Assembly (NCBI GenBank): GCA_016223245.1
Contig: JACRPL010000016.1
Coordinates: forward strand, 1,128-65,127
DNA from: Candidatus Saganbacteria bacterium
GTDB taxonomy: Bacteria > Margulisbacteria > WOR-1 > XYC2-FULL-46-14 > XYC2-FULL-37-10
Direction: 5' to 3'
DNA: 64,000 nucleotides
In this document: in pieces, positions 3,439 through 48,450 of the stretch
How positions within the stretch are numbered: position 1 is the first letter of the stretch
Layout: every line of letters begins with the position of its first letter
Translations under genes and position numbers: made by a program
Notes under the pieces: model-generated
The model's input: only the letters and a program-made list of their open reading frames with translations
Databases searched by the model: none
Told to the model about the DNA's origin: nothing

Positions 3439-3509
3439 GAGACTAGTTAGGAACCTGCGAGTGAACCCTGCCTGCCGGCAGGCACGGTTCGCGGTTCCTA
3501 ACTAGTCTC
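3439..3509. repeat. About 70-bp near-perfect palindromic element (arms actagttaggaacc, core gcctgccggcaggc); second copy at 39238
   Basis: The sequence gagactagttaggaacctgcgagtgaaccctgcctgccggcaggcacggttcgcggttcctaactagtctc is present. Confidence 0.85.
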
Positions 3510-3620
3510 ATATTGGCAGTTAGATAGAGTTGCCATTCGTAAGGAATGATTTTTGGCAAGTTTTTGTTATCGGTTGTTGATTGATGAAAAAGGGGGAAAA
3601 TTGATGAAAAAGGGGGGAAT

Positions 3621-5375: not shown

Positions 5376-6608
5376 ATGCAAGGTAAAAATAATGTTCTAA
5401 TTAGAAGCTTGGAAGAAGTAATTAATAATACAATAAAAGAGAAGCACTCCGCTCTTGTGTTCGGGCCGCGCCAGGTAGGGAAGACAACGCTAATAAAAAA
5501 GTGCCTATCAAAAACAGAAAATCTGGGATCGTATTATCTGCAAAACCCCGAAATACGGGAACAATTTGAGAAAGACCCTTCTTTGCTAATCCGCCAGGTT
5601 GAAGCTATTGACGGGAACCCGTATATTTTTGTCGATGAAGCCCAGAAGGTGCCGGAACTTTTTGACTCGATGCAGTACTTGATCGACGACAAAAAAGCGC
5701 AATTCTTGATCACGGGGTCTTCCGCTAGAAAATTGCGGAGGAAGGGAGCAAATATGCTTCCTGGCAGGGTGAAATCCTGCCGCTTAGACCCGCTAAATTG
5801 GGGCGAATTCGGATGGATAAAAGGAAGCCATATCAAGGAATTAAAAATTGACAATATCAATTCGAGAGTTGACTATTCGCTGGAAAAAATGCTTGTTTTC
5901 GGAGCCCTGCCCGGCATTGTATTGATCGAAGATGAAGAAGAAAGAAAGGATATCCTGAAATCGTATTCGAATATTTATTTGGAAGAAGAGATCAGGGCGG
6001 AATCCTTGAGCAGAAAGATCGGGGCATTTTCAAGGTTCCTGGAACTGTCGGCAAACGAATCGGGGACAAGCCCGAATCTGTCGAAGCTTTCAATGGAAGC
6101 AGGGGTAAGCGCTCCTGCCATCAAAGAATTTTATAACCTGCTTGTTGATACGCTTGTGGCTGAAAAAGTCGAACCATACCTGAAAAATGCGAGAAAAAGG
6201 ATACTATCATCGCCAAAATATTATTTCTTCGATATCGGGGCAAGAAATGCCGTGTCCAGGATGCCATTGAAAATGGAATTGGTAAATACGCAAAAAGGGA
6301 CGCTTTTTGAGCATGCTGTAATTCTGGAAATCATCAGAAGAATAAGAGTATTAGGCGAAAATTATAAAGTTTGTTTCTGGAGGACAAGTGGAGGGGCTGA
6401 AGTGGATTGTATCCTCGATCTTGGGGATAGAGTTGTACCTATAGAAATCAAGGCCAGCAAGAAGGTCGCATTATCCGAGGTTAAAGGCTTGGAAATATTT
6501 TTGAATGATTATCCCGAGGCCGAAAATATTGGTTTTGTAATTACCATGGGGGATAGGCCGGAGAAAATAACAGATAGAATAATTGCTGTTCCGTGGGATT
6601 ACATATAG
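5376..6608 (+). CDS. AAA-type ATPase of the COG1373 / DUF4143 family
   Basis: It has a Walker A motif (GPRQVGKTTL) and a Walker B motif (FVDEAQ), and its length and architecture are typical of COG1373. Confidence 0.6.
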   Translation: MQGKNNVLIRSLEEVINNTIKEKHSALVFGPRQVGKTTLIKKCLSKTENLGSYYLQNPEIREQFEKDPSLLIRQVEAIDGNPYIFVDEAQKVPELFDSMQYLIDDKKAQFLITGSSARKLRRKGANMLPGRVKSCRLDPLNWGEFGWIKGSHIKELKIDNINSRVDYSLEKMLVFGALPGIVLIEDEEERKDILKSYSNIYLEEEIRAESLSRKIGAFSRFLELSANESGTSPNLSKLSMEAGVSAPAIKEFYNLLVDTLVAEKVEPYLKNARKRILSSPKYYFFDIGARNAVSRMPLKMELVNTQKGTLFEHAVILEIIRRIRVLGENYKVCFWRTSGGAEVDCILDLGDRVVPIEIKASKKVALSEVKGLEIFLNDYPEAENIGFVITMGDRPEKITDRIIAVPWDYI

Positions 6609-6650: not shown

Positions 6651-6806
6651 CGATCTAATAATAGATATTTTATTTTTGATTCAAGTTTTAAAGCTTCACC
6701 GGCACAGGATCAAGCGCTTGTCATCGCAAAACAATATGATGGCGGCTTTGAAGTTATGTTTAGGCCAAAGCCCACGGGCGGCTTTAATTTTCTTGTTATA
6801 AATTAA
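6651..6806 (+). pseudogene. C-terminal remnant (about 51 codons, no start) of a subfamily-B fibre paralog
   Basis: It translates to ...FDSSFKASPAQDQALVIAKQYDGGFEVMFRPKPTGGFNFLVIN*, which matches the C-terminus of the 3621 gene, and there is a stop immediately upstream. Confidence 0.6.
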
Positions 6807-6928: not shown

Positions 6929-8062
6929 TTGCAAATGTTGCCACGCTATTATCAGAATTTAGAGGAATATCTACATCCCAATAAGGTTTTGGTGATATAT
7001 GGTGCAAGGCAAGTTGGCAAAACTACGCTTCTCCAAACTTTTTTCAAGAATACTAAGCTTAAATATAAAATAGACTCTGGTGATAATATTAAGGTTCAGG
7101 AAATATTGGGTTCACAAGATTTTTCAAAAATATTGGATTACGCGTCAGGGTATCAGCTTATAGTATTGGATGAAGCGCAAAGGATCCCGAATATCGGAAT
7201 GGGGCTCAAGATTCTTGTCGATCAAATCCCGGGGATTCTAGTGATCGCTACAGGGTCTTCTTCTTTCGAGCTTTCCGGCCAAATTGGCGAGCCGCTAACC
7301 GGACGGAAAAGAACCCTTACAATGTATCCATTGTCCCAAATAGAGCTGCTCAAGCTATTTAATGCCCATGAATTAAATGAAAAGCTAGGCGAATGGCTCA
7401 TTTTCGGAGGATATCCAGCAGTCATTACTTCAAAAACAAGAGAAGAGAAAATTAGCGTACTTGAGGAATTGGTGAATTCCTATTTGTTGAAAGATATACT
7501 TGAACTCGAGAAAGTTAAAGGAGCCCAGGTGCTAGTTAATCTTCTCAGATTGCTTGCTTTTCAGGTTGGGAACGAGGTTTCTTTGTCCGAACTCGCGAAT
7601 AAATTGAATATTGATTATAAAACCGTGGCTCGGTATATAGACCTTTTTGAAAAAGCTTTTGTCCTATTTGGCTTGTCTGGATTTTCGAGGAATTTAAGGA
7701 AGGAAGTTACAAGGAAGAAGAAATATTATTTTTATGACAATGGCATCCGAAATGCCATCATTTCAAATTTTAATAATCTTGATATGCGCGATGACATAGG
7801 AAAATTGTGGGAGAACTTTTTAGTCTTAGAAAGGCTTAAAACACAGGAATATATGCAGGTACACGCAAATAACTATTTTTGGAGAACTTGGGACGGGAAG
7901 GAAATTGATTGGATCGAAGAGAGAGAAGGGAAACTCTTCGCTTATGAATTTAAATACAAAAAAGATAAAGTTGGCTTGCCTAAAGATTTTATAACCTCAT
8001 ATCCAAATTCGGCATGGGAAATAATAACATCTGATAATTATTTGCATTTTCTCCTGACTTAG
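6929..8062 (+). CDS. AAA-type ATPase of the COG1373 / DUF4143 family (second copy)
   Basis: It has Walker A (GARQVGKTTL) and Walker B (VLDEAQ) motifs. Confidence 0.6.
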   Translation: MQMLPRYYQNLEEYLHPNKVLVIYGARQVGKTTLLQTFFKNTKLKYKIDSGDNIKVQEILGSQDFSKILDYASGYQLIVLDEAQRIPNIGMGLKILVDQIPGILVIATGSSSFELSGQIGEPLTGRKRTLTMYPLSQIELLKLFNAHELNEKLGEWLIFGGYPAVITSKTREEKISVLEELVNSYLLKDILELEKVKGAQVLVNLLRLLAFQVGNEVSLSELANKLNIDYKTVARYIDLFEKAFVLFGLSGFSRNLRKEVTRKKKYYFYDNGIRNAIISNFNNLDMRDDIGKLWENFLVLERLKTQEYMQVHANNYFWRTWDGKEIDWIEEREGKLFAYEFKYKKDKVGLPKDFITSYPNSAWEIITSDNYLHFLLT

Positions 8063-8182: not shown

Positions 8183-9874
8183 ATGAAAAGAGTATTGTAT
8201 ATTTTATTGGTCATATTATTGGCAATTAGCTCAAGCGCTTTTGCAGCTACCCCGCATATTATAACTGTCCAAGGCAGATTGTTGCGATCTGGCGGCATCC
8301 CCGTCAACGGAATTAAAACCGCGACCTTTATGATAATCGAGGAGCCAAATTTGTTATTATGGTTGAGCGATCCAATGCAAGTAACCCTAATAGCGGGTGT
8401 TTTTTCAGTTGATCTCGACTTGGATAAGGTTGATGACGAAAGCTTGAGCTCCCCGAATCTATTAACTTTTGATAAGCCTTGTAAAATAATTACTAATATT
8501 GATGGAACGGTTTTTGAACAAAAGATCGCTGCGGTTCCTTACGCCTTAAACGCGGAGAAACTTAACGGTATGAATATCACGAAATTTGCAACACTGGATG
8601 CGAGCGGCAATATTATCGGCGCGAAGGCGGAAAAGTATGTAAAAAAGACTGGCGATGTAATGAGCGGCGGGCTTATTATATCAAGCGGCGGGGCAGATTT
8701 TGGGCTAGTGGCGAGCGGTGAAATCGGGGGTGTTAAAGGAACATATCTGGACAATAGCGATGCTATTGGGATGCTTGGTTACGGCAAAAAGCTGGGATTT
8801 GCAATTGTTGAGGGGAAAAAAATCAGCAAGGGAACCGAATTTTATGGCGCATACGGTAAATTCACCGATCTCGCGCAAGGAGGTCTTGGCGTCCAATTCC
8901 CCGGGAAAAAATCGTTCGGAGCCTGGGGTGTCGGCGGCGTTGCTGGGGGTTATTTTGAAAGCCAAAGCGGATATGGCTTGATTGCGATCGCAAGCAATGG
9001 GTCCGAAGGCGGGGCTTTGGGCGGCTATAATGTATTTGATACATCTGATACTAAGTTTGGAGTTGCAGGAATAAGCGATTCTGGCAATGGAGTTTATGGC
9101 GATGGCGACGCGGCCTATGGCGGGGAAATAAACGGGATATTTAAGAAAGCCGGTGTTTTTGGAAAAGGCGGGGCTAAGACGAGCGGTGTTCTGGGGTATT
9201 CTGAAGTCGACAACCCAAATCGCGCAGGAGTTGTCGGTATCAATCCTAACGGATACGCGGGGATATTCTCCGGCATTAAAGGCATGAATGTATCAGGGTC
9301 TCTTGAGGTAAAAGGTGATATCCGAGGAATTGATTGGATAAGCTTTGCACCATTTGATAAAAATTGGCCTGCACCTTTCCCGACCGACCTGGCCGACACC
9401 GTGATAGGTTATTCGAGCGGCGGCATGTTTGAAGAAGCTGTTCAGGTTGTTTCTCCAACAGAATCAATGGACCCGTATATTGTCTTTGCAAGCTCCTATC
9501 TTAACACTCCTAAGAGAGGAAAGATATTGATCAAGGCAACAGGGACTGTTCAGACTTCGGATGACGGCAACTCTCCATTTTGGGTTTCGGTCAAGCTTTT
9601 ACAGACAACTTACCAAGGAACGACGAAGAAAGAATTGCCAGGCGATCTTATTACAGTGGCAGGCACAAAAGCCAGCAAGATATTCAAGTATCCGTTCACT
9701 GTACAGGGGATGTTTGATGTTTCATCTGGTTTCCCAACCTTGTTTAACCCTAATAACTACGCCGCGCTTATTAGCAATCAATTTACTTTATCTTGCGCCA
9801 TGAAAACTTACGGCGGAAAGCCTTTAAATATTACGGGAAACATTCAGGCAATTTATATGCCGAATATTAATTAA
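8183..9874 (+). CDS. Glycine-rich fibre-like surface protein (paralog family); likely start MKRVLYILLVILLAISSSAFA
   Basis: It has a signal peptide, TPHIITVQGRL, PYALNAEKLNG...KKTGDVMSGGLII and glycine repeats. The track ORF start at 8138 crosses the poly-C tract and lacks a signal peptide. Confidence 0.55.
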   Translation: MKRVLYILLVILLAISSSAFAATPHIITVQGRLLRSGGIPVNGIKTATFMIIEEPNLLLWLSDPMQVTLIAGVFSVDLDLDKVDDESLSSPNLLTFDKPCKIITNIDGTVFEQKIAAVPYALNAEKLNGMNITKFATLDASGNIIGAKAEKYVKKTGDVMSGGLIISSGGADFGLVASGEIGGVKGTYLDNSDAIGMLGYGKKLGFAIVEGKKISKGTEFYGAYGKFTDLAQGGLGVQFPGKKSFGAWGVGGVAGGYFESQSGYGLIAIASNGSEGGALGGYNVFDTSDTKFGVAGISDSGNGVYGDGDAAYGGEINGIFKKAGVFGKGGAKTSGVLGYSEVDNPNRAGVVGINPNGYAGIFSGIKGMNVSGSLEVKGDIRGIDWISFAPFDKNWPAPFPTDLADTVIGYSSGGMFEEAVQVVSPTESMDPYIVFASSYLNTPKRGKILIKATGTVQTSDDGNSPFWVSVKLLQTTYQGTTKKELPGDLITVAGTKASKIFKYPFTVQGMFDVSSGFPTLFNPNNYAALISNQFTLSCAMKTYGGKPLNITGNIQAIYMPNIN

Positions 9875-9877
9875 ATC

Positions 9878-11452
9878 ATGAAAAAATTATATAAATTAAT
9901 AATTACATTGTTGGTCATTGGCCATTGGTCATTGGTCATTATCGCACCGGCGGCCGCTATTCCCAACAAAATAATTAACATCCAGGGAAAACTGACGGAC
10001 GATCACAATAAGATCGTCAAAAGTGTAAAACAGATCCGTGTCAGCATGGTTGATTCGAACAATCAAAGCATTTGGATTTCGCCTGTTATCACCATAACGG
10101 TAAATAATGCCGGAATATTCAATGCTGAATTTGACCTATCTTCCGCAACAGGCGTTGATTTTAATTCGCCTTACAGCCTTATTATTAATGTTATCGATGA
10201 TGCCGACAAAGTTACGACTCTCAATCCGCAGTCTTTGACCTCTGTTCCTTATGCTTTAAATAGTGACAAATTTAACGGCCTTTCATCTTCGAGTTTTGTC
10301 GTGCTCGATGATTTTGGGGAAATTGCTGGTGAACTTGCGGGCAATGTTAAAAAATCCGGGGATTCAATGTCCGGGAGCCTCAAGATAACAGGCGGTGAAA
10401 GCGATGATTATGGCGTCGAGGCAAGCGGGTAGTCGGGCGCAGTGAAAGGGACATGGATAGGGGATAATAATTTCTTCGGGGTATTAGGCGGCTATAGTTA
10501 CAAATATGGGGACGATGTGTCTTTGCCCGGGGTGTATGGGCAGCATTCAAGTTATACTGGCGCTGCCAGAGGAGGCCTTGGCGTTATAAGAAATATTCTA
10601 TGGTCTTTTGGTGTTTGGGGAAAAGGGCTGACCGCGGGCGGATATTTTTCTAGCGCGAACGGGACAGGTGTCCTTGGAAAATCTACGGGAACCGGCGGAA
10701 TATTTGGCGCTTATAATTCAAATTCGACAACTGACAAGTATTATGGAGTCGCAGGTGTTAGCGTTGCAGGCAACGGGGTGTATGGCGAGATAACTAGCGA
10801 TACGTTTAGCAGCGAGTGGAAAGCAGGGGTTTACGGCAAAGGAGGCGCAAAAACCTCTGGAGTTATGGGATACACAACAACAGATAAAGACAATGCGGCG
10901 GCAATTGTCGGGATCAATCCAAAAGGATACGGAGGGGATTTTACAGGAAAAAACGGCGTAAAAATAAATGGGCCGCTTGAAGTTTCGGGCGGGATACAAG
11001 GCAAGGGGCTTCACTGGGCGGAAAAAGGAATTACCGCATCTAATTTTTTTACCAAGACAAGCATTGGCGGTTATTATTACCATAAAATGATCAAGCATAT
11101 ATATGTGACATTCCCATATTCAGGCTATGCCCTTGTTCAAGCAAGCGGCATATTCTCAAACAATGACGAAAGTTTTTCCCAAATGTCCGCGCAAATAACC
11201 GACAACGAGTATTTGGATCCTGACGGAAAAAACTTTATTATTGATGGATCGGTCGCTGTTGTGGGATTAACAAATCCAACTGGGCAAGGATTCTATCCAT
11301 CGTTTCCATTTGCGTCATCAAGGGTTTTTGGAGTGGAAGGAGGCAAGTCGTATCATTTTCATTTGATCGGATTTCTAAAAACAACGAAAAGCGACGTTAA
11401 ATTTAATTTTGATGGCGCCCTTAATTGCATGTTCTTCTCGAGGAAATACTGA
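9878..11452 (+). pseudogene. Fibre-like surface protein paralog interrupted by an in-frame TAG at 10430..10432
   Basis: The ORFs 9878..10432 and 10442..11452 are in the same frame and the paralog alignment runs straight through the stop (GVEASG*SGAVKGTWIG versus GIESSGKTAGVKG). Confidence 0.5.
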
Positions 11453-11453
11453 T

Positions 11454-13007
11454 ATGAAAAGATTATCTATGAATATAATTATTACATTGTTGGTCATTTA
11501 TCATTGGTCATTTGTCATTTGTGCGCCTGCGCGCGCGGATGTCCCCAAAATAATGAATATCCAAGGCAAATTGACCGATCCGAATTCCAAGGCTGTTTCC
11601 GGGGCCAAAAAATTAAGATGTTCTCTGGTTGACAATAAAGGCGCGGCTGTTTTCAATTCTAAGGTTTATGATATCCCGCTAAATAGCGACGGAGTGTTCA
11701 ATGTGGATATTGACATATCTTCCACTCTCGCAGATTTTAATTCGCCATATACTTTGAATATTATTATTATCAATGAAGACGGGTCGACTTCTATTCTTGA
11801 GCCTAAGGCTCTAACTTCCGCACCATATGTATTAAATGCCGGAATGCTCGGAGGGCTTAAGCCCGCCTCTTTTGCGGCAAAAGATGCGGATGGCAAAATA
11901 GTCGGGTCGGTCGCCGGTTATGTCAAAAAAAGCGGGGATGAAATGAGCGGGGGCTTAAAAGTGAACGCCGGTAAATCTAATTTCGGGATCGAATCAAGCG
12001 GAAAAACGGCAGGGGTCAAAGGTTTATCGGCTTCAAGCGGCGATAGGTGGGGAGCGCTTGGCGGAGAGAATTATGGCGTTTACGGTCAGTCAACGGCTAA
12101 TGCGATAGGCATAATAGGCGTTTATGGCGTTTATGGCGTTTATGGCTCTGGAAAAACGTTTGGAGGGTATTTTCAAAGTTCAACAGGTATTGGCGCTATC
12201 GGGAAAACAACCGGCGCTAATGGCGGAGTGTTTGGCGGATACAACACCGCAGAGGCTAATGATAAATGGTTTGGGGTTGCAGGGGCAAGCGATTCGGGAA
12301 ACGGGATATATGGCGAAGTAGCCAGTAATACTTTGGACAGCGATTGGAAGGCCGGAGTTTACGGCAAGGGGAGCAATACGACGAGCGGAGTTTTTGGATA
12401 TACTGATTCAACGAGTGGCGCAGGCGTTAAGGGCGTAGATAATAGCGGATATGGGGCGATATTTTCGGGGGAAAAGGGCGTAAAAGTCGACGGACCTGTA
12501 AATATTTCAGGGACAATTACCGCAAACAATTTGCCGGGAATTGCTTACGATAACTATTTTAATTTTTCTAATACCAATCTAAAGTCGAGCACGGCAGTAA
12601 TCATTAAATCTGTTGAAATAGATGTGCCTGCTCCCGGGTATATATTGGTCCAATCAAGCGGAACCTTGTATTCATACGCCACTACCGATGTTTTAATTGG
12701 CTTAGGAATACTTAATATTGATAATTTCTCTTCTCAAGTCTTTTATGATGTATACTTTGGGACAAATCCATTGGTTTCGTATGTTTTTCTAGCGGATAAT
12801 TCGAAATTTAATTTTTCATGCCAGTTTGAAGCAAAAAAATCGATGGGCCCCAATATATATTTCCCATTTTCTACAAGCAATGTATTTGAAACGAAAACTG
12901 CCGGCAAACAAAAGTTTTATTTGACGGGATATCTTAAACATTCTGCTTCTTCCGGCCGATTAGATGTTTCAGGCTCGATACAAGCTATCTATTTCCCAAG
13001 CAAGTAG
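11454..13007 (+). CDS. Glycine-rich fibre-like surface protein (paralog family, subfamily A)
   Basis: It begins MKRLSMNIIITLLVIYHWSFVICAPARA, then PKIMNIQGKL, PYVLNAGMLGG...KKSGDEMSGGLKV and repeats such as GVYGVYGVYG. Confidence 0.6.
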   Translation: MKRLSMNIIITLLVIYHWSFVICAPARADVPKIMNIQGKLTDPNSKAVSGAKKLRCSLVDNKGAAVFNSKVYDIPLNSDGVFNVDIDISSTLADFNSPYTLNIIIINEDGSTSILEPKALTSAPYVLNAGMLGGLKPASFAAKDADGKIVGSVAGYVKKSGDEMSGGLKVNAGKSNFGIESSGKTAGVKGLSASSGDRWGALGGENYGVYGQSTANAIGIIGVYGVYGVYGSGKTFGGYFQSSTGIGAIGKTTGANGGVFGGYNTAEANDKWFGVAGASDSGNGIYGEVASNTLDSDWKAGVYGKGSNTTSGVFGYTDSTSGAGVKGVDNSGYGAIFSGEKGVKVDGPVNISGTITANNLPGIAYDNYFNFSNTNLKSSTAVIIKSVEIDVPAPGYILVQSSGTLYSYATTDVLIGLGILNIDNFSSQVFYDVYFGTNPLVSYVFLADNSKFNFSCQFEAKKSMGPNIYFPFSTSNVFETKTAGKQKFYLTGYLKHSASSGRLDVSGSIQAIYFPSK

Positions 13008-13024
13008 TTTAATGTTCTACGATT

Positions 13025-13288
13025 TTACCGATAAATATCTTTCCGATGCCCAATTCGAAGTATTATTATAGTTTTGCTTTTTTGCTCAACGTCGTACAGC
13101 ACCCTATAATCCCCGATACGGATACGGAATTGTGCTACATCGTCAGCAATAAGGCGTTTCACTCCATCAGGAAAAGGGATTGATTCCAGTTTCATAATTG
13201 CCGCATCAATACGTTTAACCTCAAAATGATCAATTTTTTTAAGATCTTTCTTGGTGCGAGGAGTGATAAGTATCTGATAAGCAGACAT
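13025..13288 (-). CDS. RelE/ParE-family type II toxin
   Basis: It is 87 aa with a RelE/ParE-like sequence (…RIRIGDYRVLYDVEQKSKTIIILRIGHRKDIY). Confidence 0.65.
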   Translation of the reverse strand: MSAYQILITPRTKKDLKKIDHFEVKRIDAAIMKLESIPFPDGVKRLIADDVAQFRIRIGDYRVLYDVEQKSKTIIILRIGHRKDIYR

Positions 13289-13504
13289 TTAGTTCCGTCC
13301 GACTAAAAGACGATATTTACGATAGGGAACGGCTTTTCCTCTATTGTGATCTTTTCTGCCTTGACGAATAGATTTTTTTAGCTGTTTGGAAGTTGTCTCA
13401 AGGATTATATCCTCCACCAGCGACCAGTCCTTCAATATCTCTTCTTGGAGTCTTTCTATTCTGCCCAATTTCTTTAAAATAAGATTTTTTGACGCTTCCG
13501 TCAT
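13289..13504 (-). CDS. Putative antitoxin partner of RelE (about 71 aa, start MTEASKNLILKKLGRIE)
   Basis: It sits immediately upstream of the toxin with the stop/start adjacent. The longer track ORF 13289..13738 is extended by antisense ilvD-fragment sequence. Confidence 0.4.
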   Translation of the reverse strand: MTEASKNLILKKLGRIERLQEEILKDWSLVEDIILETTSKQLKKSIRQGRKDHNRGKAVPYRKYRLLVGRN

Positions 13505-13620
13505 TTTTTCACCCAAAATAATTTTAGCATATATTTCTGATCGAGTCAAAAAGGGATTGGAATTGAGTCCATCCGTCCCTATCTTTTTTATGTTATAATT
13601 TATAGACTTAGGAGCTGATT

Positions 13621-13890
13621 TTATGCGAAGCGATAATATTAAAAAAATGGGGCCGCCCCGCGCCTTAGTCCACCGGCCTTCCTGCCATTTGTGATTGGAT
13701 CGCCATGGGACACAAGGGGATGCATTATTCTCTGCCATCGAGAGAACTCATAGCAGACACAGTTGAAACAGTAGCCGAAGCCCATCAATTAGATGGTCTT
13801 ATTTTGCTAACTGCTTGCGACAAGATAACACCCGGGATGCTTATGGCGGCGGCACGGTTGAATATCCCTTCTATGTTAATCATTGTTGTA
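13621..13890 (+). pseudogene. Degenerate duplicated 5' fragment of ilvD ([11 protein letters not shown]... fused to ...[66 protein letters not shown])
   Basis: It is about 90% identical at the DNA level to 15129..15183 and 15337..15540, and the atgttataatt promoter motif upstream is also duplicated. Confidence 0.8.
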
Positions 13891-14233
13891 GCCAGGCTTG
13901 ATAAAGTTATGGGAGAGTTGGAGAAATTCCGCGAAGATAGGGTTCTCGCAAAGAAAAAAGACGACGACCAGGACGAGAAATTGGCGGCGCATGAAAAGAG
14001 ATTGCTTCGCGTTGAGTCAAAGGTTGGAGTTTAGAACCGGATACCCAGGGAATTTGGATAATAGGAACAATAATTTTTTCCAAATAACCTAATCTCCCAA
14101 TTCCCAGTCGCAAATTTCCCAATTACCAAATTTCCTCGACAACGCGATTGCCCAAAAACCGCATCATTATGGTATAATTCACAAAAGAAGAGAAAAAAGG
14201 TATGACGCTATTAGTTGAGGCCAGGGCTTCAGC

Positions 14234-14587
14234 GTGATTTGTTCAGCCGCGCTCGGGGTAAAGGAAAAAAAGATGGACGAAGAAATAAAAAATATAACAA
14301 AGCGGATCGCCGAAAAATTTAATCCCAGAAAACTCATTCTCTTTGGCTCGTCTGCTTTAGGTGCGAGAAAAGAAAATAGCGATGTGGATTTATGCGTAGT
14401 TAAAGACTATATCCAAGATCGGACAATGGATTCAGTCGCGATCAGGAAAATTATTGGGAAAAATTTGATACCTTTTGATATTGTAGTTTTAGGCAGAGAT
14501 GAATATGACAGCCGGAAAAATATTTGGGGAACTTTGCAGTATGAGATAGATAAAAAGGGAATAGTTCTTTATGAGCGCAGAGATTGA
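14234..14587 (+). CDS. Nucleotidyltransferase-domain protein (MNT-type antitoxin/toxin component)
   Basis: It has the LILFGSSALGARKENSDVDLCVV motif (GS...D.D). Confidence 0.6.
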   Translation: MICSAALGVKEKKMDEEIKNITKRIAEKFNPRKLILFGSSALGARKENSDVDLCVVKDYIQDRTMDSVAIRKIIGKNLIPFDIVVLGRDEYDSRKNIWGTLQYEIDKKGIVLYERRD

Positions 14588-14957
14588 AAAAGAGAAAGCC
14601 GTAATAATAGGCGAATGGGAGCGGAGAGCGCTTGATGACCTTGTATCGGCGGAAATCATATTGAAGGAGAGCGATAAATATGAGATTTCCGTCTATCATT
14701 CGCATCAGGCAGTTGAAAAATTTTTGAAAGCAAACCTGTTAAAACTGGGGCAAACATTTAAATTCACCCACGATATTGATGTTTTGTTCGAACAAGTTTT
14801 TGGCGATGATAAAGATAAGGCGGCAGCCGAAAAAATCGCCCATCTTAACGCTTTATATCCGTCTTTAAGATATCCCTTTGGGGAAAAGATAACCAAGGAC
14901 CAGGCGATTAATTGCCTGGCGATAGCAAAAGAAGCGATTAGCCGGTTGCGAAAATAG
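14571..14957 (+). CDS. HEPN-domain protein (partner of the MNT at 14234)
   Basis: It overlaps the MNT gene and carries HSHQAVEKFLKANL, matching the HEPN R/H..EK.LKA signature. Confidence 0.55.
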   Translation: MSAEIEKEKAVIIGEWERRALDDLVSAEIILKESDKYEISVYHSHQAVEKFLKANLLKLGQTFKFTHDIDVLFEQVFGDDKDKAAAEKIAHLNALYPSLRYPFGEKITKDQAINCLAIAKEAISRLRK

Positions 14958-15128
14958 TCGTGGCGGTGGAAGGCTATGGGAAATAAGGGGGTTAGACATA
15001 GAAGATAGAAGCTTGTTTCAAGAATCCACAGTCCAGCATCCAATTTCATAATTAGCTTCCGAAACTATGGCCAAGATAACCTCAAACGATTATTTCATGT
15101 TATAATTGCTTCCTCAGGGGGTATCATC

Positions 15129-16772
15129 ATGCGAAGCGATAATATTAAAAAAATGGGGCCGACCCGCGCCTTAGTCCACGCGACAGGCGTTTCTGATAAA
15201 GAACTTTCAAAACCATTTATCGGCCTTGCTTCCTCATTTACCGACTTGGTGCCGGGGCATGTTGATATGCGATCGCTTGAAAGAGTTATAGAAAAAGGGA
15301 TACATGCCGGCGGCGGAGTTTCATTCACATTCGGCCTTCCTGCCATTTGTGATGGGATCGCCATGGGACACAAGGGGATGCATTATTCTCTGCCATCGAG
15401 AGAACTCATAGCAGACACTGTTGAAACAGTCGCAGAAGCCCACCAATTGGATGGTTTAATATTGCTCACCGCTTGCGACAAGATAACACCCGGAATGCTA
15501 ATGGCGGCCGCGCGATTAAATATCCCTTCTATTATAGTTACAGCAGGCCCAATGCTCGCAGGTTGTTATAAAGGCGAGAGGCTTGATCTTGTCCACGACG
15601 CTTTCGAGGCAGAAGCGGCTTACAAGCAGAAAAAAATATCAAAAAAAGATTTCGATAGTTTAATTTTAAGCGCGTGTCCCGGAGCCGGTTCGTGTTCCGG
15701 TTTATTTACCGCAAATACTATGGCCTGTGCGACGGAAGCGATGGGAATGTCCTTGCCATTCTGCGGGACATCCCTTGCCGTATCTTCCAAGAAAAAAATG
15801 ATCGCCTATGAAAGCGGCAAAAGGATAGTTGAGTTGGTATCCGAAAATCTTACTCCAAGAAAGATCATGAACATGAACTCATTCATGAATGCGATACGCA
15901 TCGATATGGCGCTTGGCGGATCGACGAATGCTGTATTGCATCTGACAGCGATCGCGCAGGAAGCGGGGATCGATCTGACGCTTGATATATTTGACAAGAT
16001 AAGCCGTGAAACCCCGCATATTACAAATATCCGCCCCGGCGGAAACCATTTTATGGAGGATTTTGAGAATGCCGGCGGCATTCCCGCCGCTTTTTCCGTC
16101 CTTCAAAAACTCTTGAAAGATAATCCAACAGTTTCAGGGATGTCGGTCAAACAGATCGCAAAATCTGGAGTTGTTTATGATCGCGAAGTCATAAAAACAT
16201 TGGACAATCCGTATCATAAGCAAGGAAGCCTCGCCGTTCTTAAAGGAAACATCGCTCCTGAAGGGGCAGTTGTAAAACAAACCGCGGTTTCACAGAAAAT
16301 GATGAAATTTTCGGGAGAAGCGATTGTTTTTGATTCCGAAGATGCGGCGCAAAAAGCGATCGTTTCCGGTAAAGTCAAAAAAGGGCATGTTGTTGTCATA
16401 AGATATGAAGGGCCAAAAGGCGGACCCGGGATGCGGGAGATGCTTTATCCAACATCGGCTATCGCCGGTATGGGGCTTTCTGATTCAGTCGCATTAATTA
16501 CTGATGGGCGATTTTCCGGTGGAACAAGAGGTCCATGCATTGGCCACGTCGCGCCGGAAGCCGCTTTAGGCGGACCGATCGCGGCTGTAAAAAATGGGGA
16601 CGTTATTGATATAGATATTCCGAACAGGAGAATAGAGTTGCGGGTAACGAGCAGCGAGTTGAAAAAACGATTGGCGGCTGTAAAACCGCATGAGCCGAAG
16701 ATCAAAGCCGGGTGGCTTGCGAGATATCAGAAGCTTGTAACTTCGGCAAGTGTGGGCGCTATACTTAAGTAG
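15129..16772 (+). CDS. ilvD: Dihydroxy-acid dehydratase
   Basis: It contains [19 protein letters not shown] and [11 protein letters not shown], and is the length of a full IlvD/Edd enzyme. Confidence 0.9.
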
Positions 16773-16800
16773 GATAGCAGGAGGTCACTCTGAAGGGAAA

Positions 16801-17127
16801 ATGAAAACAGATAAAATTGATGAAAGTTTAATTAAAGATGCCGCGGCTAAGATAGCGGCAAAGCTTAATCCTAAAAAAATTATTCTTTTTGGGTCGCATG
16901 CATGGGGGAAAGCTTCGGGAAGCAGCGATTTAGACCTTTTTATAATAGCACCTTCGGTTTTACGTCGAGATGAAAGGGGGGTTGAAGTTTCCAAACTTTT
17001 TCCAGATAGGTTGTTCCCACTCGACGCGCTTGTATATACCCCGGAAGAAGTTGAGCAAAGTTTAAGGCGAAAAAATCCGTTTGTGAAAGAAATTTTGGAA
17101 AAAGGGAAAATTCTCTATGGCGCCTGA
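16801..17127 (+). CDS. Nucleotidyltransferase-domain protein (MNT-type)
   Basis: It has the ILFGSHAWGKASGSSDLDLFIIAP motif. Confidence 0.6.
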   Translation: MKTDKIDESLIKDAAAKIAAKLNPKKIILFGSHAWGKASGSSDLDLFIIAPSVLRRDERGVEVSKLFPDRLFPLDALVYTPEEVEQSLRRKNPFVKEILEKGKILYGA

Positions 17128-17530
17128 TTCTTTAAATTTTGAGGATTGGTTTTTAAAAGCGGGAAATGAGATAAAAGCCGCTGATGGGATTTTCTTCTAT
17201 TATGAAGATCCGCCGACGGACATGATCTGTTATCATGCCCAACAGGCGGCGGAAAAAACGCTTAAAGCTTTTTTGATCTATAAGTCCGAACTGGCCCCCA
17301 AAACGCATGATTTGGTTGAACTTGTAAATTTGTGTATTAAGCAGGACAAGGATTTTTTAAGCCTGAAAGAGCTTATTGAAGTTTTAAATAAGTATTATAT
17401 TGAATCAAAATATCCACCGGACAATCCTATTATTTATTCTAAAGACGAAGCAAAGAGCGCTATAGCGCTAGCAAAAAACATTTTGAAATTTTCAAAAAGC
17501 AAGGTCTCAAAAGGGGCGGTGTTAAGATGA
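17117..17530 (+). CDS. HEPN-domain protein
   Basis: It has YHAQQAAEKTLKAFL and overlaps the upstream MNT gene. Confidence 0.55.
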   Translation: MAPDSLNFEDWFLKAGNEIKAADGIFFYYEDPPTDMICYHAQQAAEKTLKAFLIYKSELAPKTHDLVELVNLCIKQDKDFLSLKELIEVLNKYYIESKYPPDNPIIYSKDEAKSAIALAKNILKFSKSKVSKGAVLR

Positions 17531-17769
17531 GCCTCCCAAAATATTTCAAAGGAATATTGTGGTTCGCAGATTTCAATAAACTCTCCCTAAAAGAGGACAG
17601 AAATATTATTTTGTTCCAAGCGCTTGAGAAGGGTAGAATGGAGCACCTCAAATATCTGAAAAACAAGCTTGGCGCAAAAGCGATCGTTGATTTTGCAAGA
17701 AAAAATTCGAATAAATTCAGCAGGAAAAGCGTATTAACTTTCGCGGAAACGGTTTTTGGTGGCAAATAG
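17527..17769 (+). CDS. Small hypothetical protein, probable partner (AbiEi-like antitoxin role) of the downstream AbiEii-type gene
   Basis: It overlaps the start of the 17756 gene and is 80 aa. Confidence 0.3.
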   Translation: MSLPKYFKGILWFADFNKLSLKEDRNIILFQALEKGRMEHLKYLKNKLGAKAIVDFARKNSNKFSRKSVLTFAETVFGGK

Positions 17770-18415
17770 GATGCAGCCGCTTCACTTTGAGGTCCTTGAT
17801 GAGAAAAGAATTAAAGCGTTCAAGGATATTTCCGCTATATTGGACGAAAAATATTATCTTGCCGGTGGCACAGCGCTGGCTCTTCAGCTCGGGCATAGAA
17901 AATCCTATGATTTTGATGTTTTCGGGAACAAAGATATAACTTTTGCCGTTAAAAAAAAGATTATAAAAGGGCTTAGCGGCTATAAGATCAAAACGCTTGT
18001 AGATTCCTCCGATGAATTAAGCCTTATCCTTAATGAAGAGATCAAACTTACAGTCCTGAATTATTATTGGGATCCGATAAAGTCGCTTGTAAAGCTTAAA
18101 GGCTATCTTCCTCTTCTTTCAATATTGGATATCGCGGCAACAAAAGCATACGCACTTGGAAGAAGAGGCAATTACAGAGACTATTTCGACCTTTATATTA
18201 TCATAAAAAATGAGTATGCGACTTTAAGAGCCATAATTTCTTGCTGTAAAAAAAAGTATGGAGAACTCTTCAGCGAAAAGATGCTTCTTGAGCAATTGAC
18301 CTATATTGGCGATCTGGACGAAAAAGAAAAACTCATGTTTTCTTCGGAGAAATTTGTTCCGTCGAGGAAAATAATAGAGTTCTTTAAAAATAAGATCAAG
18401 GGGAACTCGCATTAA
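17756..18415 (+). CDS. Nucleotidyltransferase AbiEii/AbiGii toxin family (DUF1814-like)
   Basis: Near its N-terminus it has YYLAGGTALALQLGHRKSYDFDVF, matching the GGTAL...R.S.D.D signature. Confidence 0.55.
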   Translation: MVANRMQPLHFEVLDEKRIKAFKDISAILDEKYYLAGGTALALQLGHRKSYDFDVFGNKDITFAVKKKIIKGLSGYKIKTLVDSSDELSLILNEEIKLTVLNYYWDPIKSLVKLKGYLPLLSILDIAATKAYALGRRGNYRDYFDLYIIIKNEYATLRAIISCCKKKYGELFSEKMLLEQLTYIGDLDEKEKLMFSSEKFVPSRKIIEFFKNKIKGNSH

Positions 18416-18579
18416 AGAAGCGTGCTATACTTAGGAAGGCGTAATGCGTAACGCGCGATGCGGGATGCGAGGGGGAATTATATGAAAGACGCAGCTGTTA
18501 ATTGGTTTGCAAAGGCAGATCTGACAAAATATGCGCAAGCAGGAGATATTGTTGATCGATTTGTAAAATAAATGTTAAA

Positions 18580-18774
18580 ATGAAAATAACAAAAAGATCG
18601 AAAGAATATTTTATAGATAATATTTCGCGGACAAACCAGGTTGTTTTTACAGTGCTCATAGTCGGCACATTTGTAACAGGGTTCAATATTATTGTTTTTA
18701 TTATCGGCAGTATTATTTTTCTTTTACTTTTGCTTGCAGGAACTTTTTTAACATCAAAAACGGAGGATCAATAA
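18580..18774 (+). CDS. Small membrane protein, paralog of 1084..1272
   Basis: It begins MKITKRSKEYFIDNISRTNQVVFTVLIVG followed by a second TM segment. Confidence 0.4.
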   Translation: MKITKRSKEYFIDNISRTNQVVFTVLIVGTFVTGFNIIVFIIGSIIFLLLLLAGTFLTSKTEDQ

Positions 18775-18775
18775 T

Positions 18776-18883
18776 ATGAACCAATATTTAAGCTTGGTGC
18801 CGATGGTGATATTTTTAGTTGTAGTTTTGATCTTTGTGGCTATTGTTGCGTTTAGCGGCAAGCCGCCGAAGGGGATACTATAG
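18776..18883 (+). CDS. Small hydrophobic peptide (35 aa) ending ...FSGKPPKGIL
   Basis: It follows an RBS (ggagga) and is a paralog of the 947 peptide. Confidence 0.35.
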   Translation: MNQYLSLVPMVIFLVVVLIFVAIVAFSGKPPKGIL

Positions 18884-18927
18884 GGGCTATCGGCGCAAGC
18901 AGGAGATCAGGCAAAAAATCTGATAAA

Positions 18928-19269
18928 GTGAAGGCAGGGCATAATATGGCAAAAGAATATGAATTAGTTGTAAATAATTTTTTGGATAGGATAAGCGCCT
19001 TAAGGCCAAGCATCAGCAGCATGTATCTTTTCGGTTCGCATGCAAGAGGGACCGCTCGACCGGATTCTGATTATGATATTCTCATTGTTGCGCCTAAAAA
19101 AAATAAGGAATTAAAAAGCAAGCTGTATGACGCTGTAATGGATATTGAGTTGGAAAAGGGCGCGGACATTTCGTTGAAAGTGTTAAAACAGGACCAATTT
19201 GACAGGCTTCGGGAATTTAACACGCCATTCATTAAAAATGTTTTAAAAGAAGGGATTAAAATTGCATAA
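18928..19269 (+). CDS. Nucleotidyltransferase-domain protein (solitary MNT)
   Basis: It has the LFGSHARGTARPDSDYDILIVAP motif. Confidence 0.55.
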   Translation: MKAGHNMAKEYELVVNNFLDRISALRPSISSMYLFGSHARGTARPDSDYDILIVAPKKNKELKSKLYDAVMDIELEKGADISLKVLKQDQFDRLREFNTPFIKNVLKEGIKIA

Positions 19270-19374
19270 CAGCGCGTTAATAAAAGAATTTATTTCGGAA
19301 ACTAAGAAGATTTTAAAGATCTAGAAAGAAGTTCCTGTTGACTGTTGTTGATTGATAATTAGGAGGAAATAATC

Positions 19375-21225
19375 ATGAAAAAATTAATATTGTTCCTGGC
19401 CCTGTGCTCTGCTTTCTGCTTTCTGCTGTCTGCTGTCTTATTTGCCGATGTGCCGAGGACAATAAATATCCAGGGGCGATTGACGCAAAAAGATGGCGCG
19501 CCGATAAAAGACGGCCACTATGATTTCACGTTTTTCTTGGTAGATGAAAATAACAACTTCATGTCAACGATACTTAACGGTATAAACCCGATAGTAAATA
19601 ATACAAACAAGCAAACTCTTACTATAGATAAAAATGGGATATTCAATGCAATCCTTGAATTTGATCCAACATTTAGTTTTGATCCCGCTGTTTATCAGAT
19701 CAAAAAAATTGTTTTGGTTTCCAATGTCATAATTGACCCAGGTCAGCCCAAGGGGGTTGGCTTTGCGCAAGATATTACAGCTGTCCCTTATGCGATAAAT
19801 GCTGCAAATGCCGATAAGATCGGCGGAAAAACTTTTGATGAAGCGCTAAAAGCAAGTGGTGTTTCCGTAGGCGGTGGAGGCGTTGTTAACGAAAAATTTG
19901 ATCATTTGTATGTTGGCGATCAAAACAAAAATCATATAACTATGGTACCGCAAGGCAATAGTCTGGCTATATATGCTAAAGGAAATTATGTTGGCATTAA
20001 TGCTGTTGGTTATAGTTTTGGCGGAACATTTGAAGCTGATCCTGTTAAAGGAGTAGGGGTTTCTGGAGCTGGTGGAATTGGCGTGCAGGGCATTGGCGCA
20101 ACATATGCTGGTGGTATTTTTTATGGGCCAAATATAGGCGTTTTCGGTGCGTTATCTAGCGGACCACAAAATGGAAATAATTATGGCGTCTTAGGTGTAA
20201 CGTCTATTGCTGCTGGGAAGTATCTTCCTGGCACCATTAATTCTTATGGGGTTGCAGGAGTATCAGATACGGGAACTGGCGTTTTCGGAAAGAGCGATCA
20301 ATGGATAGCGATAGATGCAAAAACTAACTCGACAAAAGTTGAAGTGGCGGCTGTACATGGAGAAGCATCCAATTTTAAAGTGTTTGGCGAACTTGGGGTA
20401 TCCCGTTATTTCGCAGGCGTTAATCCGCCCATGGGCGTATTTGGAACATCAACGGATATTGGCGTTTATGGTTCCGTCGGAGATTCCACCAAAGTGACGA
20501 CATTGTCAACAAAAAACATCCCATCAATTGGTGTAGCTGGCTGGTCGCCAGATGGGAGAGGCGTGAGCGGGGGCAGCAGTAGCGGGACGGGGGTGTTTGG
20601 GGTCTCACAAGATGGTCTAGGCGGCAAATTTGAAAGCAAAAGCAGTGATGGTATTCATGCTTCGGGTATTTATGGAGTGTATGGCCTAAGTACTTCAAAA
20701 GATGGGATAGGAATATATGGCGCAAATGTTAATGGTATTGGAGTTAGAGGATGGAGCAGTACATCTATTGGAGGAAAATTTGAAAGTGTGAATGATGCAG
20801 GAATTTCAGGATATAGCATGAAAAGCAATGGCGTCCATGGGATTAGCGATCAATCATACGGTGTCTATGGAATTAGCAAAAGCGATTTAACCGCCGGAGT
20901 GCGCGCGCAAAACCAAAATGGCGGCCCCGCATTGTTTGTTGACGGCCCAATTCAAATGCCTGCAGGCAACGCCTCTGTAACTAGCGGCTCGCCCACAGCG
21001 ACAATAAATAAGGCTGTTGGCAGGGTAAATATTTCCGGGACATCCCAGTTTGATGTAACGGTAAATAATTCTTATGTGCATAAGGATTCTATTATATTAT
21101 TGACTATAATAAATTCTAATTCTAATTATGATCAGGCTGTGACGATCAAAAATCAAGTTAACGGGGCATTTACTGTCGGGTTCCGCTCAATAACTCAAGG
21201 GTTCAATTTTCTTGTTATAAATTAA
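19375..21225 (+). CDS. Glycine-rich fibre-like surface protein (subfamily B paralog of 3621)
   Basis: Its signal peptide is encoded by (CTGCTKT)n heptamers. It has VPRTINIQGRL and VPYAINAANADKIGG, and shares 'ELGxxRYFAGVxPPMGVFGTSTDIGxYGSVG' and the C-terminal FNFLVIN with the 3621 gene. Confidence 0.6.
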   Translation: MKKLILFLALCSAFCFLLSAVLFADVPRTINIQGRLTQKDGAPIKDGHYDFTFFLVDENNNFMSTILNGINPIVNNTNKQTLTIDKNGIFNAILEFDPTFSFDPAVYQIKKIVLVSNVIIDPGQPKGVGFAQDITAVPYAINAANADKIGGKTFDEALKASGVSVGGGGVVNEKFDHLYVGDQNKNHITMVPQGNSLAIYAKGNYVGINAVGYSFGGTFEADPVKGVGVSGAGGIGVQGIGATYAGGIFYGPNIGVFGALSSGPQNGNNYGVLGVTSIAAGKYLPGTINSYGVAGVSDTGTGVFGKSDQWIAIDAKTNSTKVEVAAVHGEASNFKVFGELGVSRYFAGVNPPMGVFGTSTDIGVYGSVGDSTKVTTLSTKNIPSIGVAGWSPDGRGVSGGSSSGTGVFGVSQDGLGGKFESKSSDGIHASGIYGVYGLSTSKDGIGIYGANVNGIGVRGWSSTSIGGKFESVNDAGISGYSMKSNGVHGISDQSYGVYGISKSDLTAGVRAQNQNGGPALFVDGPIQMPAGNASVTSGSPTATINKAVGRVNISGTSQFDVTVNNSYVHKDSIILLTIINSNSNYDQAVTIKNQVNGAFTVGFRSITQGFNFLVIN

Positions 21226-21231
21226 TCTATA

Positions 21232-21639
21232 ATGAATAACACGTATATTAATAAGGAATTGCTTGCAATACTGGATAAATATAGCCCCATGCTAGTATAT
21301 TATTTTGGGTCGGCGTCAAGGGACAAGATGGGGCCCATGAGCGACATTGACCTGGCGGTTTTATGGCCTGAAAATGAAAATACCCCAATGGTAAAAAGCT
21401 TGATCCTGCAAAACGAGATCCAAAGCCGGCTAAATAATAAAAAATACGAAATTGGCTGCCTGAATAACCAATCTTTGAGCTTTTGCTATTCGGTAATATC
21501 AACAGGCAGATGCATATATGGTTCGGATCCGAACAGGGTCGCTTATGAAACAAAGATATTGGACGAATATCTTGATTTCGGATATTTGTCCGATATTTAT
21601 AACAAAGAATTCGACAAAAGGATACTTAAAAATGGATAA
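21232..21639 (+). CDS. Nucleotidyltransferase (MntA-like antitoxin)
   Basis: It has the YYFGSASRDKMGPMSDIDLAVLWP motif. Confidence 0.55.
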   Translation: MNNTYINKELLAILDKYSPMLVYYFGSASRDKMGPMSDIDLAVLWPENENTPMVKSLILQNEIQSRLNNKKYEIGCLNNQSLSFCYSVISTGRCIYGSDPNRVAYETKILDEYLDFGYLSDIYNKEFDKRILKNG

Positions 21640-21641
21640 TC

Positions 21642-22049
21642 ATGGTCAATATTGAAGAAATACACCATAGGCTCTCGGAAATAAAGGAAGCGCTCGATTA
21701 TCTTGAAAGCTCGCATGAACAAATGCGGTCGAGCAGGGATAAGTTTTTACTTGGAAGATATTTCTTGCAGGTAATGCTTGAGGCTGTATTCACGATAGGC
21801 AACCAAATAATATCCGATGCCGGGCTCAGAAAACCTTCAAATTATAAGGATATCCTGCTGATATTAAAAGAAAATGGCATAATAAGCGCAAATGAACACG
21901 AAACAATGATAAAATTTGCGGACCTAAGGAACCGGCTTGTGCATACTTACTGGAAAATTTCTTCAGAAGAACTTTTGGAAATAAGCTCTGATCTTATGAT
22001 ATTCCATAATTTTTCAGGAATTATAGTGAGATATATTTCAAAAAAATAA
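21642..22049 (+). CDS. HepT/DUF86-like HEPN toxin
   Basis: It has RNRLVHTYWKI, matching the R-X4-6-H-xY HEPN motif, and lies immediately downstream of the MNT gene. Confidence 0.5.
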   Translation: MVNIEEIHHRLSEIKEALDYLESSHEQMRSSRDKFLLGRYFLQVMLEAVFTIGNQIISDAGLRKPSNYKDILLILKENGIISANEHETMIKFADLRNRLVHTYWKISSEELLEISSDLMIFHNFSGIIVRYISKK

Positions 22050-25323: not shown

Positions 25324-25382
25324 GATTTAGAAAGATGTAAGGACGGGAACGATCGAATTATTAAGAGGAGGAGTGGAGTAAA

Positions 25383-46570: not shown

Positions 46571-48450
<1,880 letters not shown>

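Follow-up and report, generated by a model that had tools for sequence, protein, structure and literature searches.

The ilvD gene of an uncultured Candidatus Saganbacteria bacterium, which encodes dihydroxy-acid dehydratase, is preceded by a truncated copy of its own promoter motif and 5' end, and the two copies bracket a pair of small genes encoding a minimal nucleotidyltransferase (MNT) and a HEPN-domain protein. The pattern of differences between the two copies shows, in our reading of the sequences, that they are not the product of a simple duplication in place: a second, once-functional ilvD allele would have been brought in through recombination, and the truncated copy, hereafter the stub, would be the relic of a different allele. 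The locus lies in a 64,000-nucleotide (nt) stretch of a contig from a metagenome-assembled genome (MAG), referred to here as the window, whose positions serve as coordinates throughout. Gene families were assigned by Pfam and NCBIfam profile searches of the open reading frames (ORFs) of the window, and the stub was compared with the intact gene by means of a repeat finder and alignments. Read along the + strand, the locus comprises a ParE/RelE toxin gene and a small ORF, both on the − strand, the ilvD fragment, a 1218-bp insert carrying the MNT and HEPN genes, and the complete ilvD, as follows.

13025..13288, − strand: ParE/RelE-family toxin gene, the presumed resident flank left of the stub (PF05016, E=1.3e-12; RelE_StbE, 31 bits for a cutoff of 27.9).
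13289..13510, − strand: putative antitoxin partner of the ParE-like toxin, so labelled by position only, as the ORF abuts the toxin gene.
13586..13600, + strand: upstream copy of the conserved ilvD extended −10 motif (TTTTATGTTATAATT), identical at 14/15 positions to 15093-15107.
13601..13622, + strand: stub leader and ribosome-binding site, of an apparently ancestral type resembling the leader of L002.
13623..13673, + strand: stub block 1, codons 1-17 of ilvD (nt 1-51), identical at 50/51 positions to 15129-15179; the sole difference is non-synonymous, Pro versus Thr.
13674..13758, + strand: stub block 2a (nt 204-288), a putative gene-conversion tract, 84/85 identical (83/84 for nt 204-287).
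13759..13874, + strand: stub block 2b (nt 289-404), the diverged allele; the ilvD homology stops at 13872-13874.
13875..14233, + strand: left part of the insert, with an open frame from the stub to 14034 and imperfect palindromes at 14047-14136 (ORF listing and inverted-repeat search).
14171-14179, + strand: promoter-like site TGGTATAAT in the insert, read from the sequence.
14273..14587, + strand: MNT gene, putative antitoxin (PF18765, PF01909).
14571..14957, + strand: HEPN-domain gene, putative toxin (PF05168, E=6e-23), whose first 17 nt are shared with the MNT gene.
15093..15128, + strand: −10 motif of the intact ilvD (15093-15107) followed by an unrelated leader (15108-15128), from motif and leader alignments and contig L001.
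15129..16772, + strand: intact ilvD, dihydroxy-acid dehydratase, 547 amino acids, matching PF00920 and PF24877 over its full length, 83-87% identical to the nearest species.

Besides the two short matches listed above, 13674-13874 matches 15332-15532 at 184/201 positions. The repeat formed by the stub and the intact gene is far beyond chance, and the self-comparison confirms what had been proposed from the letters of the window (the original prediction), namely that a degenerate copy of the ilvD promoter and 5' end stands upstream of the MNT/HEPN pair and of the intact gene, with an internal deletion. This deletion removed 152 bp (counterpart 15180-15331, joint 13673|13674), which is not a multiple of three and therefore shifts the frame; the frame opened by the ATG of the stub closes after 23 codons. 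The extent and the identity first given for the copy (about 270 bp of coding sequence within 13585..13890, about 90% identical) had to be revised: the stub runs from motif to end over 13586-13874 and keeps 252 nt of coding sequence spanning ilvD nt 1-404, and its identity to the intact gene is far from uniform. As for the RelE/antitoxin pair placed at its left, the ParE/RelE toxin is borne out by Pfam and NCBIfam, whereas the would-be antitoxin ORF (13289-13510, − strand) has no family match in either collection. Most likely, the stub itself has no function, transcription from its promoter into the cargo being the most that could be expected of it.

The differences between the two copies are distributed as a mosaic. 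In ilvD nt 1-287, of which the stub retains 135 nt, 133/135 positions are identical and both differences are non-synonymous: one is the Pro/Thr change, at a variable position, and the other, in block 2a of the stub, replaces by Trp a Gly that is invariant in all relatives. In nt 288-402 (115 nt), the identity falls to 99/115, and the 16 differences, contained in 38 codons, are all synonymous (16/16), corresponding to a proportion of synonymous differences (pS) of 0.56 and to a synonymous divergence (dS) of ~1. The step at nt 287/288 is significant (2/135 versus 16/115, Fisher p=1.3e-4), and it is not due to uneven conservation, because the window gene shares 75-81% of its positions with the ilvD genes of other species in each of the three blocks, evenly along the gene. 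Random substitutions in these 38 codons would be silent in 27% of cases; the chance of finding 16 silent changes out of 16 is ~1e-9 if all of them fell on an unconstrained copy and ~7e-4 if half of them did. The exclusively silent changes, together with a dS of ~1, therefore indicate a long evolution of nt 288-402, in either version, within working genes of separate lineages. The fragment would have turned into a pseudogene only recently. What is new here is clean silent-site evidence that the stub is, as far as such a comparison can tell, a foreign or displaced allele.

The regions lying upstream of the two start codons also differ. Both copies carry the motif TTTyATGTTATAATT, whose 12-nt core YATGTTATAATT has no third occurrence in the 64 kb (expected number, 0.08). 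The −10 motif is also found directly upstream of ilvD in L002, L010 and L089-L093, and we take it as a conserved ilvD promoter element because it occupies this position in several species. Note that a consensus promoter scan did not list the TGTTATAAT sites, as a −35 match is absent there, so that they are candidate promoters by virtue of their conservation upstream of ilvD in these species. The leaders, from the −10 motif to the ATG, are 21-22 nt long; those of the two copies are identical at 11/23 positions, i.e. unrelated. The stub leader resembles the leader of L002, another species (18/25), and the leader of the intact copy matches neither. Two other features of the locus were considered and set aside: base composition (~37-40% GC in the cargo, 45-50% in ilvD) as a marker of donor and recipient, since all accessory genes here are AT-richer, and a duplicated leader or riboswitch as an explanation of the repeat, since no Rfam family is matched in 12900-15400.

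These data bear directly on the possibility that the segment extending from the −10 motif to nt 404 was duplicated in place, by widely staggered breaks or a template switch, and that the outer copy has been decaying since, which is the literal sense of an "insertion with long target duplication" (PMC2853133). Such a history would fit the near identity of nt 1-287, where two non-synonymous differences are what decay of a redundant copy could leave, and the repeat found at secD (see below), where 102/104 positions match, leader included. But 16 synonymous differences out of 16 with a dS of ~1 are incompatible with unconstrained decay (P ~7e-4 or less), the leaders are unrelated and that of the stub matches another species, and two later allelic replacements in the intact gene, one of the leader and one from nt 288 onward, would be needed. 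We thus consider duplication in place improbable.

The ilv locus was compared with that of related bacteria belonging to other species. The nearest ilvD, in L088 (87% amino acid identity, Logan contig), lies in the order geneB-ilvD-ilvB, with no stub and no MNT/HEPN pair; it is flanked by homologues of the window genes 17-931 and 1444-2649 on one side and by ilvB on the other. In the window, ~12.5 kb separate gene 1444-2649 from ilvD. The ilvD, ilvB, ilvN and ilvC genes are contiguous in L003 and L063, and the window ilvN and ilvC are separated by an ATPase gene. Altogether, a single promoter–ilvD unit with neither stub nor MNT/HEPN is present in other species (L002, L088 and L089-L093), with an upstream context that differs in every relative. 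The original prediction had named a stub lying without cargo in relatives as the finding that would tell against it; this was seen in none of the related loci examined, none of which is conspecific.

No relative examined contains two ilvD copies, which is one of the difficulties met by the idea that the stub is what remains of a second full-length ilvD, two complete genes having once lain side by side until the older copy was deleted together with part of an adjacent gene. This scenario accounts for the foreign-allele signature, the differing leaders and the open frame that runs from the stub into unrelated sequence. It nevertheless involves more events (acquisition, deletion, conversion and the 152-bp deletion) and leaves unexplained why the same layout recurs beside small cargo, with stubs of only 40-105 nt, at secD, ilvN, dxr and the 3' end of ilvD, so that it appears distinctly improbable to us.

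Contigs of the Logan collection assembled from run SRR12113407 provide independent evidence on the locus: L082 corresponds to 9811-13652, L001 to 14096-15158 and L083 to 15783-18019. L082 spans the ParE/RelE toxin gene and continues into the ilvD stub, and L001 joins the HEPN gene to the intact promoter and the first 30 nt of ilvD; these contigs thus reproduce both the junction between the ParE side and the stub and that between HEPN and ilvD. L082 and L001 each stop 30 nt into a shared 33-mer, as expected for a k=31 graph. Two further k=31 contig breaks, at 14096 (in the insert, upstream of MNT) and 15783 (inside ilvD), are explained by no repeat of the window; they may reflect a second context or allele in the SRR12113407 sample, or low coverage. 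Exact-protein look-ups with the intact IlvD, the 109-residue stub ORF and the guessed partial product of 13729-14034 found nothing.

Could the locus be a metagenome assembly artefact, two ilvD variants, from different strains or species, having been stitched in series although they do not belong to one molecule? The source is a MAG contig, the Logan graph branches at the shared 33-mer and breaks at 14096 and 15783, and positions 13653-14095 have no independent confirmation. Against this, graph chimeras arise at shared k-mers, and the joints 13673|13674 and 13874|13875 display neither repeat nor microhomology; a dS of ~1 is a species-level, not a strain-level, divergence; the stub, having a frameshifting deletion as well as a Gly-to-Trp change, is a real pseudogene in any location; and the same architecture exists in a curated complete genome (L005), in addition to the outer junctions being reproduced by the Logan contigs. 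An artefact is therefore very improbable.

The insert (13875-15092) contains no genes besides MNT and HEPN. An inverted-repeat search at the locus revealed no terminal inverted repeats or att-like cores, the junctions 13874|13875 and 15092|15093 have no core sequence in common, and among the ORFs lying from 2.6 to 26 kb none matched an integrase or transposase family; recombinase families of any type were likewise not found in the insert or in the ~10 kb on each side. With a target repeat of ~290-450 bp, no transposase or integrase and no terminal inverted repeats, the earlier view that the duplication brackets the cargo and does not result from simple transposition holds. The imperfect palindromes at 14047-14136 are internal to the insert and more likely represent an operator or a terminator than element ends. 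The open frame that runs from the stub into the insert constitutes a 109-residue ORF (13705-14034), whose tail is possibly the end of a truncated donor gene; a homologue search with this tail (13876-14031) found nothing.

Some integrative elements, like e14 in icd and the islands inserted in tRNA genes, rebuild the end of their target gene and leave the displaced stub on the far side, with mostly silent differences. A site-specific element of this kind, inserted at the 5' end of ilvD with a replacement end, would account for the displaced far-side gene end and for the synonymous differences, both being typical of such elements. However, the 1.2-kb cargo is small, it has no integrase or recombinase either within it or in the ~10 kb on either side, the targets are several and unrelated, with repeats of varying length, and the ilvD, secD and ilvN junctions share no attachment core; we hardly believe in this explanation.

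We favor, with an even degree of belief, a scenario in which 13586-13874 is the displaced 5' end of the ilvD allele that formerly stood beside the ParE-like module, DNA from a related lineage having recombined in. Integration of such DNA by host recombination is the simplest account because the alleles and the leaders differ and the locus lacks a recombinase. Which way the transfer went, the combination of one homologous with one illegitimate exchange and the later conversion are inferred. More specifically, (i) linear DNA would have entered the cell carrying the tail of some gene, the MNT and HEPN genes and an ilvD 5' coding part of its own, preceded by promoter and leader; (ii) host recombination, with no dedicated recombinase, would have integrated it, one exchange using homology within or beyond ilvD and the other DNA end being joined illegitimately to the resident ilvD at nt 404; (iii) the product would be [old ilvD start]-[cargo]-[promoter + complete ilvD], with a stub, made up of the promoter, leader and first 404 nt of the resident gene, next to the resident flank, the incoming promoter keeping ilvD expressed and resident DNA being replaced without topological problem; (iv) nt 1-287 of the two copies would later have been homogenized by gene conversion, its left bound being set by the unrelated leaders, unless this similarity is a patchy outcome of the recombination itself; and (v) the redundant stub would have decayed through the 152-bp frameshifting deletion, the Gly-to-Trp change and the Pro versus Thr difference.

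Integration anchored at one end by homology (homology-facilitated illegitimate recombination) is an established process (PMC3240628), known experimentally from competent bacteria and from conjugation in Escherichia coli; at ilvD, we infer it from the product. It needs no element-encoded enzymes and would give the arrangement found here, a conserved gene serving as the anchor of the foreign DNA and a random illegitimate joint truncating the resident copy. The foreign-allele signature and the sharp change of identity at nt 287/288 are both present, the crossover in the intact gene not being locatable without the parental sequences. A 2026 study reports that natural transformation frequently yields multiple discontinuous donor segments in close proximity (PMC13344027).

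Several points weigh against the entry of related-lineage DNA by this route. First, a near-identical nt 1-287 segment next to a dS of ~1 in nt 288-402 is not predicted, and an extra event is needed. Second, the assignment of the resident and foreign copies, which may have to be reversed, is drawn from the leader comparison only. Third, no homologue of the putative donor gene tail was found with which the 13874|13875 joint could be compared for microhomology. Fourth, the GTDB relatives are at most 83% identical at the amino acid level, none of them has the same upstream context and no conspecific genome was found, and a scan of JGI metagenomes with a 24-mer present in the two copies gave distant ilvD genes only (65-74% nt identity). 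Finally, positions 13653-14095 fall outside the Logan contig cover, L001 beginning at 14096.

In Campbell-type insertion-duplication, a single crossover of a circular DNA carrying a gene fragment leaves direct repeats on both sides of the insert, and the original prediction had invoked such a circular element. Here, a circular, non-replicating DNA carrying the cargo and the ilvD segment extending from the −10 motif to nt 404 would have recombined through a single crossover inside ilvD. The layout would be the same, with an outer truncated copy, the cargo and a complete gene, since the downstream copy remains complete when the 5' fragment includes its promoter; the lack of a recombinase gene and the foreign-allele signature would be accounted for as well, and the fact that only circles with a terminal gene fragment leave the gene intact would explain why all cases lie at gene ends. 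As a corollary, recombination between the repeats could free the circle again, making the cassette mobile without a recombinase of its own; for restriction-modification units flanked by long repeats, a cycle of release and reinfection has been put forward (PMC2853133). On the other hand, neither a circular junction nor a free form was seen, and the cargo has only two relatives, both on contigs of ~1 kb and none among viral or plasmid-like contigs. Besides, both repeats would then be chimeras, for which an even divergence is expected instead of the 99% followed by 86% observed, and the circle would first have to be formed by an illegitimate joining of nt 404 to unrelated DNA, one step more than in the linear model. 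The latter yields the same architecture with fewer assumptions, explains why the ancestral-type leader lies beside the outer flank and is at least as good. The initial proposal seems right in having the insertion mediated by ilvD homology, and the 16/16 synonymous differences add to it a second allele acquired by recombination; the circle and the single crossover receive no specific support, and we regard them as unlikely, albeit worth keeping in mind.

A search for the same pattern at other TA modules had been suggested along with the original prediction. Scars of this type are found at no fewer than three other places in the 64-kb window (secD, ilvN and a surface-protein gene) and at three loci in other Saganbacteria MAGs; this recurrence across several genes and genomes is new. 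At secD, 48427-48530 and 49507-49610 are identical at 102/104 positions, both differences being silent, and the repeat begins with the final 24 nt of a peptidase-C39-like gene lying upstream, continues with a TTGGACA/TACAAT promoter and takes in the 59 nt with which secD starts. In the stub, ~102 nt are missing after the repeat, which is followed by a further secD-like piece of ~15-45 nt (copies 48427-48570 and 49507-49727); the layout is hence the same as at ilvD, including an internal deletion soon after the start codon. The cargo (48601-49460, − strand) comprises a 65-residue ORF and an AbiEii toxin gene. At ilvN, it is the 3' end that is present twice, its decayed copy standing immediately before ilvC (24223-24288 and 25310-25382, cargo 24319-25323). 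The stub keeps the ancestral ilvN-ilvC junction, GGAG..TAAAATGGCA, as in L003, and the intact ilvN, whose C-terminus differs from that of its relatives, lies across an AAA ATPase gene (AAA_14/ATPase_2) from the stub. Finally, the last 135 nt of the surface-protein ORF 3621-5306 (5171-5305) recur with 77% identity at 6671-6805, past a DUF4143/AAA_14 ATPase gene (5376-6608), and a second DUF4143 ATPase gene (6929-8062) directly follows this repeat.

In the other MAGs, the targets are again diverse. L004 (18902-20063) contains a 47-nt stub of the dxr 5' end (40/47), followed by an MNT gene and a small ORF and then by the intact dxr. In L005 (11607-12340), which is a complete genome curated manually, the final 41-56 nt of ilvD recur past an ORF6N gene on the − strand, and the differences within 41 nt of this 3' stub are all silent (5/5). 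L003 (653-2051) carries a DUF4143 ATPase gene between two 55-nt hairpin-containing repeats (52/55). In every case, the insert lies at a gene end, the gene is intact and the truncated copy is on the far side, while targets and repeat lengths vary from case to case and the secD, ilvN and ilvD junctions have no common core. One could go further and picture the toxin-antitoxin (TA) and defence modules of Saganbacteria as recombinase-free "homology hitch-hikers" that carry a spare housekeeping gene end (ilvD, secD, dxr or ilvN), loop out via the gene-end copies and use the homologous recombination of the host to re-enter the orthologue in another lineage, where the gene would be rebuilt each time and a stub left behind. 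We put this forward as a speculation that is more probably wrong than right by a wide measure; if true, the hitch-hiker cycle would be the TA counterpart of the cycle of invasion, amplification and release that has been proposed, and never demonstrated, for restriction-modification systems.

The cargo of the ilvD locus consists of two adjacent ORFs overlapping by 17 nt. The MNT ORF is open from GTG 14234 (14234-14587), but the true start is likely ATG 14273, which gives a protein of 105 residues: the MNT relatives found in L094 and L095 are 105 residues long and align from this ATG. With the NCBIfam MntA equivalog model, the MNT protein scores 32 bits for a cutoff of 60. The HEPN protein (14571-14957) matches no NCBIfam model and belongs to Pfam family PF05168, not to the HepT-like family PF01934; no R-x4-6-H motif is visible in its translation. 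"Toxin-antitoxin" should thus be read as a family-level label for this putative pair, and a role of the HEPN protein as a ribonuclease toxin is uncertain. In a collection of 5.8 billion proteins, the HEPN protein has only two relatives (72-73% identity), whose ~1-kb contigs have uninformative flanks; among viral contigs, neither relatives of the cargo nor matches to the ilvD 24-mer were found.

A few observations concern the surroundings. The ilvD-ilvB junction (16750-22049), contiguous in L003, L063 and L088, is occupied in the window by 5.3 kb of accessory genes: a second MNT/HEPN pair, a DUF6922-like/AbiEii pair, a lone MNT gene, a 616-residue paralogue of the surface family and an MNT/HepT pair. 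The first MNT ORF of this insert overlaps the ilvD stop codon, and ~2-2.5 kb are inserted at the same junction in L004, L005, L006 and L008. The surface family consists of large, paralogous secreted or surface proteins with no Pfam match, whose genes have near-identical upstream regions and signal-peptide-coding starts (TTGGTCATTGG repeats). These shared regions lie at 1428-1527, 9850-9949 and 11429-11528, and also at 3558-3611 and 19329-19382; the member located inside the ilvD-ilvB insert is 19375-21225, and 4353-4573 is 81% identical to 20380-20600. Elsewhere in the window, a 63-nt GC-rich hairpin-forming sequence is present at 3439-3501 and 39238-39300, 36 kb apart, with 98% identity, and may be a small intergenic repeat or a terminator. 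Two 72-nt sequences (57697-57768 and 57819-57890), 86% identical and 122 nt apart, resemble a pair of tRNA genes on the − strand.

How does the ilvD locus compare with known insertions? Insertion with long target duplication has been described for restriction-modification units that are flanked by repeats of 46-423 bp and lack mobility genes, most of them in species with natural competence (Furuta, Abe & Kobayashi 2010, PMC2853133; see also Nobusato et al. 2000, Gene 259:99). By the definition used in the 2010 study, the ilvD locus has direct repeats longer than 30 bp that match the target and an insert well below 20 kb (1218 bp) with no linked mobility genes; its cargo is not a restriction-modification system, so that the likeness is one of architecture only. 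In both situations, a small "addiction-type" unit lies between direct repeats of the target, which often overlap gene ends and vary in length (~290 bp are retained at ilvD out of a 440-bp segment). Note that the repeats of restriction-modification units are not always identical either (384/412 and 368/393; PMC2853133, Table 3). The differences are that the cargo is MNT/HEPN here, and AbiEii, DUF4143 ATPases or ORF6N elsewhere in Saganbacteria, that one of the ilvD repeats appears clearly foreign (dS ~1), with a different leader, and that the host is known from an uncultured Saganbacteria MAG. The locus also recalls the chromosomal TA islets of the ccdO157 type, described as "genomic islets by themselves" (PMC2654758), in that a two-gene TA-type unit stands alone between housekeeping genes without a carrier element; unlike in that review's account, which does not describe long flanking repeats derived from a neighbouring gene end, the ilvD locus keeps its insertion scar.

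In conclusion, the ilvD case belongs to a known kind, that of long target duplication or homology-anchored illegitimate integration, with a TA-type cargo and in an uncultured phylum. One event of gene acquisition in this lineage has left its scar at the locus, from which it can be read that a foreign allele probably came with the cargo, that no element-encoded enzyme would have been required and that an essential gene escaped disruption thanks to the promoter and gene start supplied by the incoming DNA. Gene-end stubs of this type are pseudogenes in which annotation pipelines may call short ORFs, like the one at 13705-14034, and at which metagenome graphs branch. As the pattern recurs, small TA and defence genes may regularly enter operons in these bacteria through homology-anchored recombination instead of transposons or integrases, which would extend the long-target-duplication pattern from restriction-modification systems to TA-type cargo.

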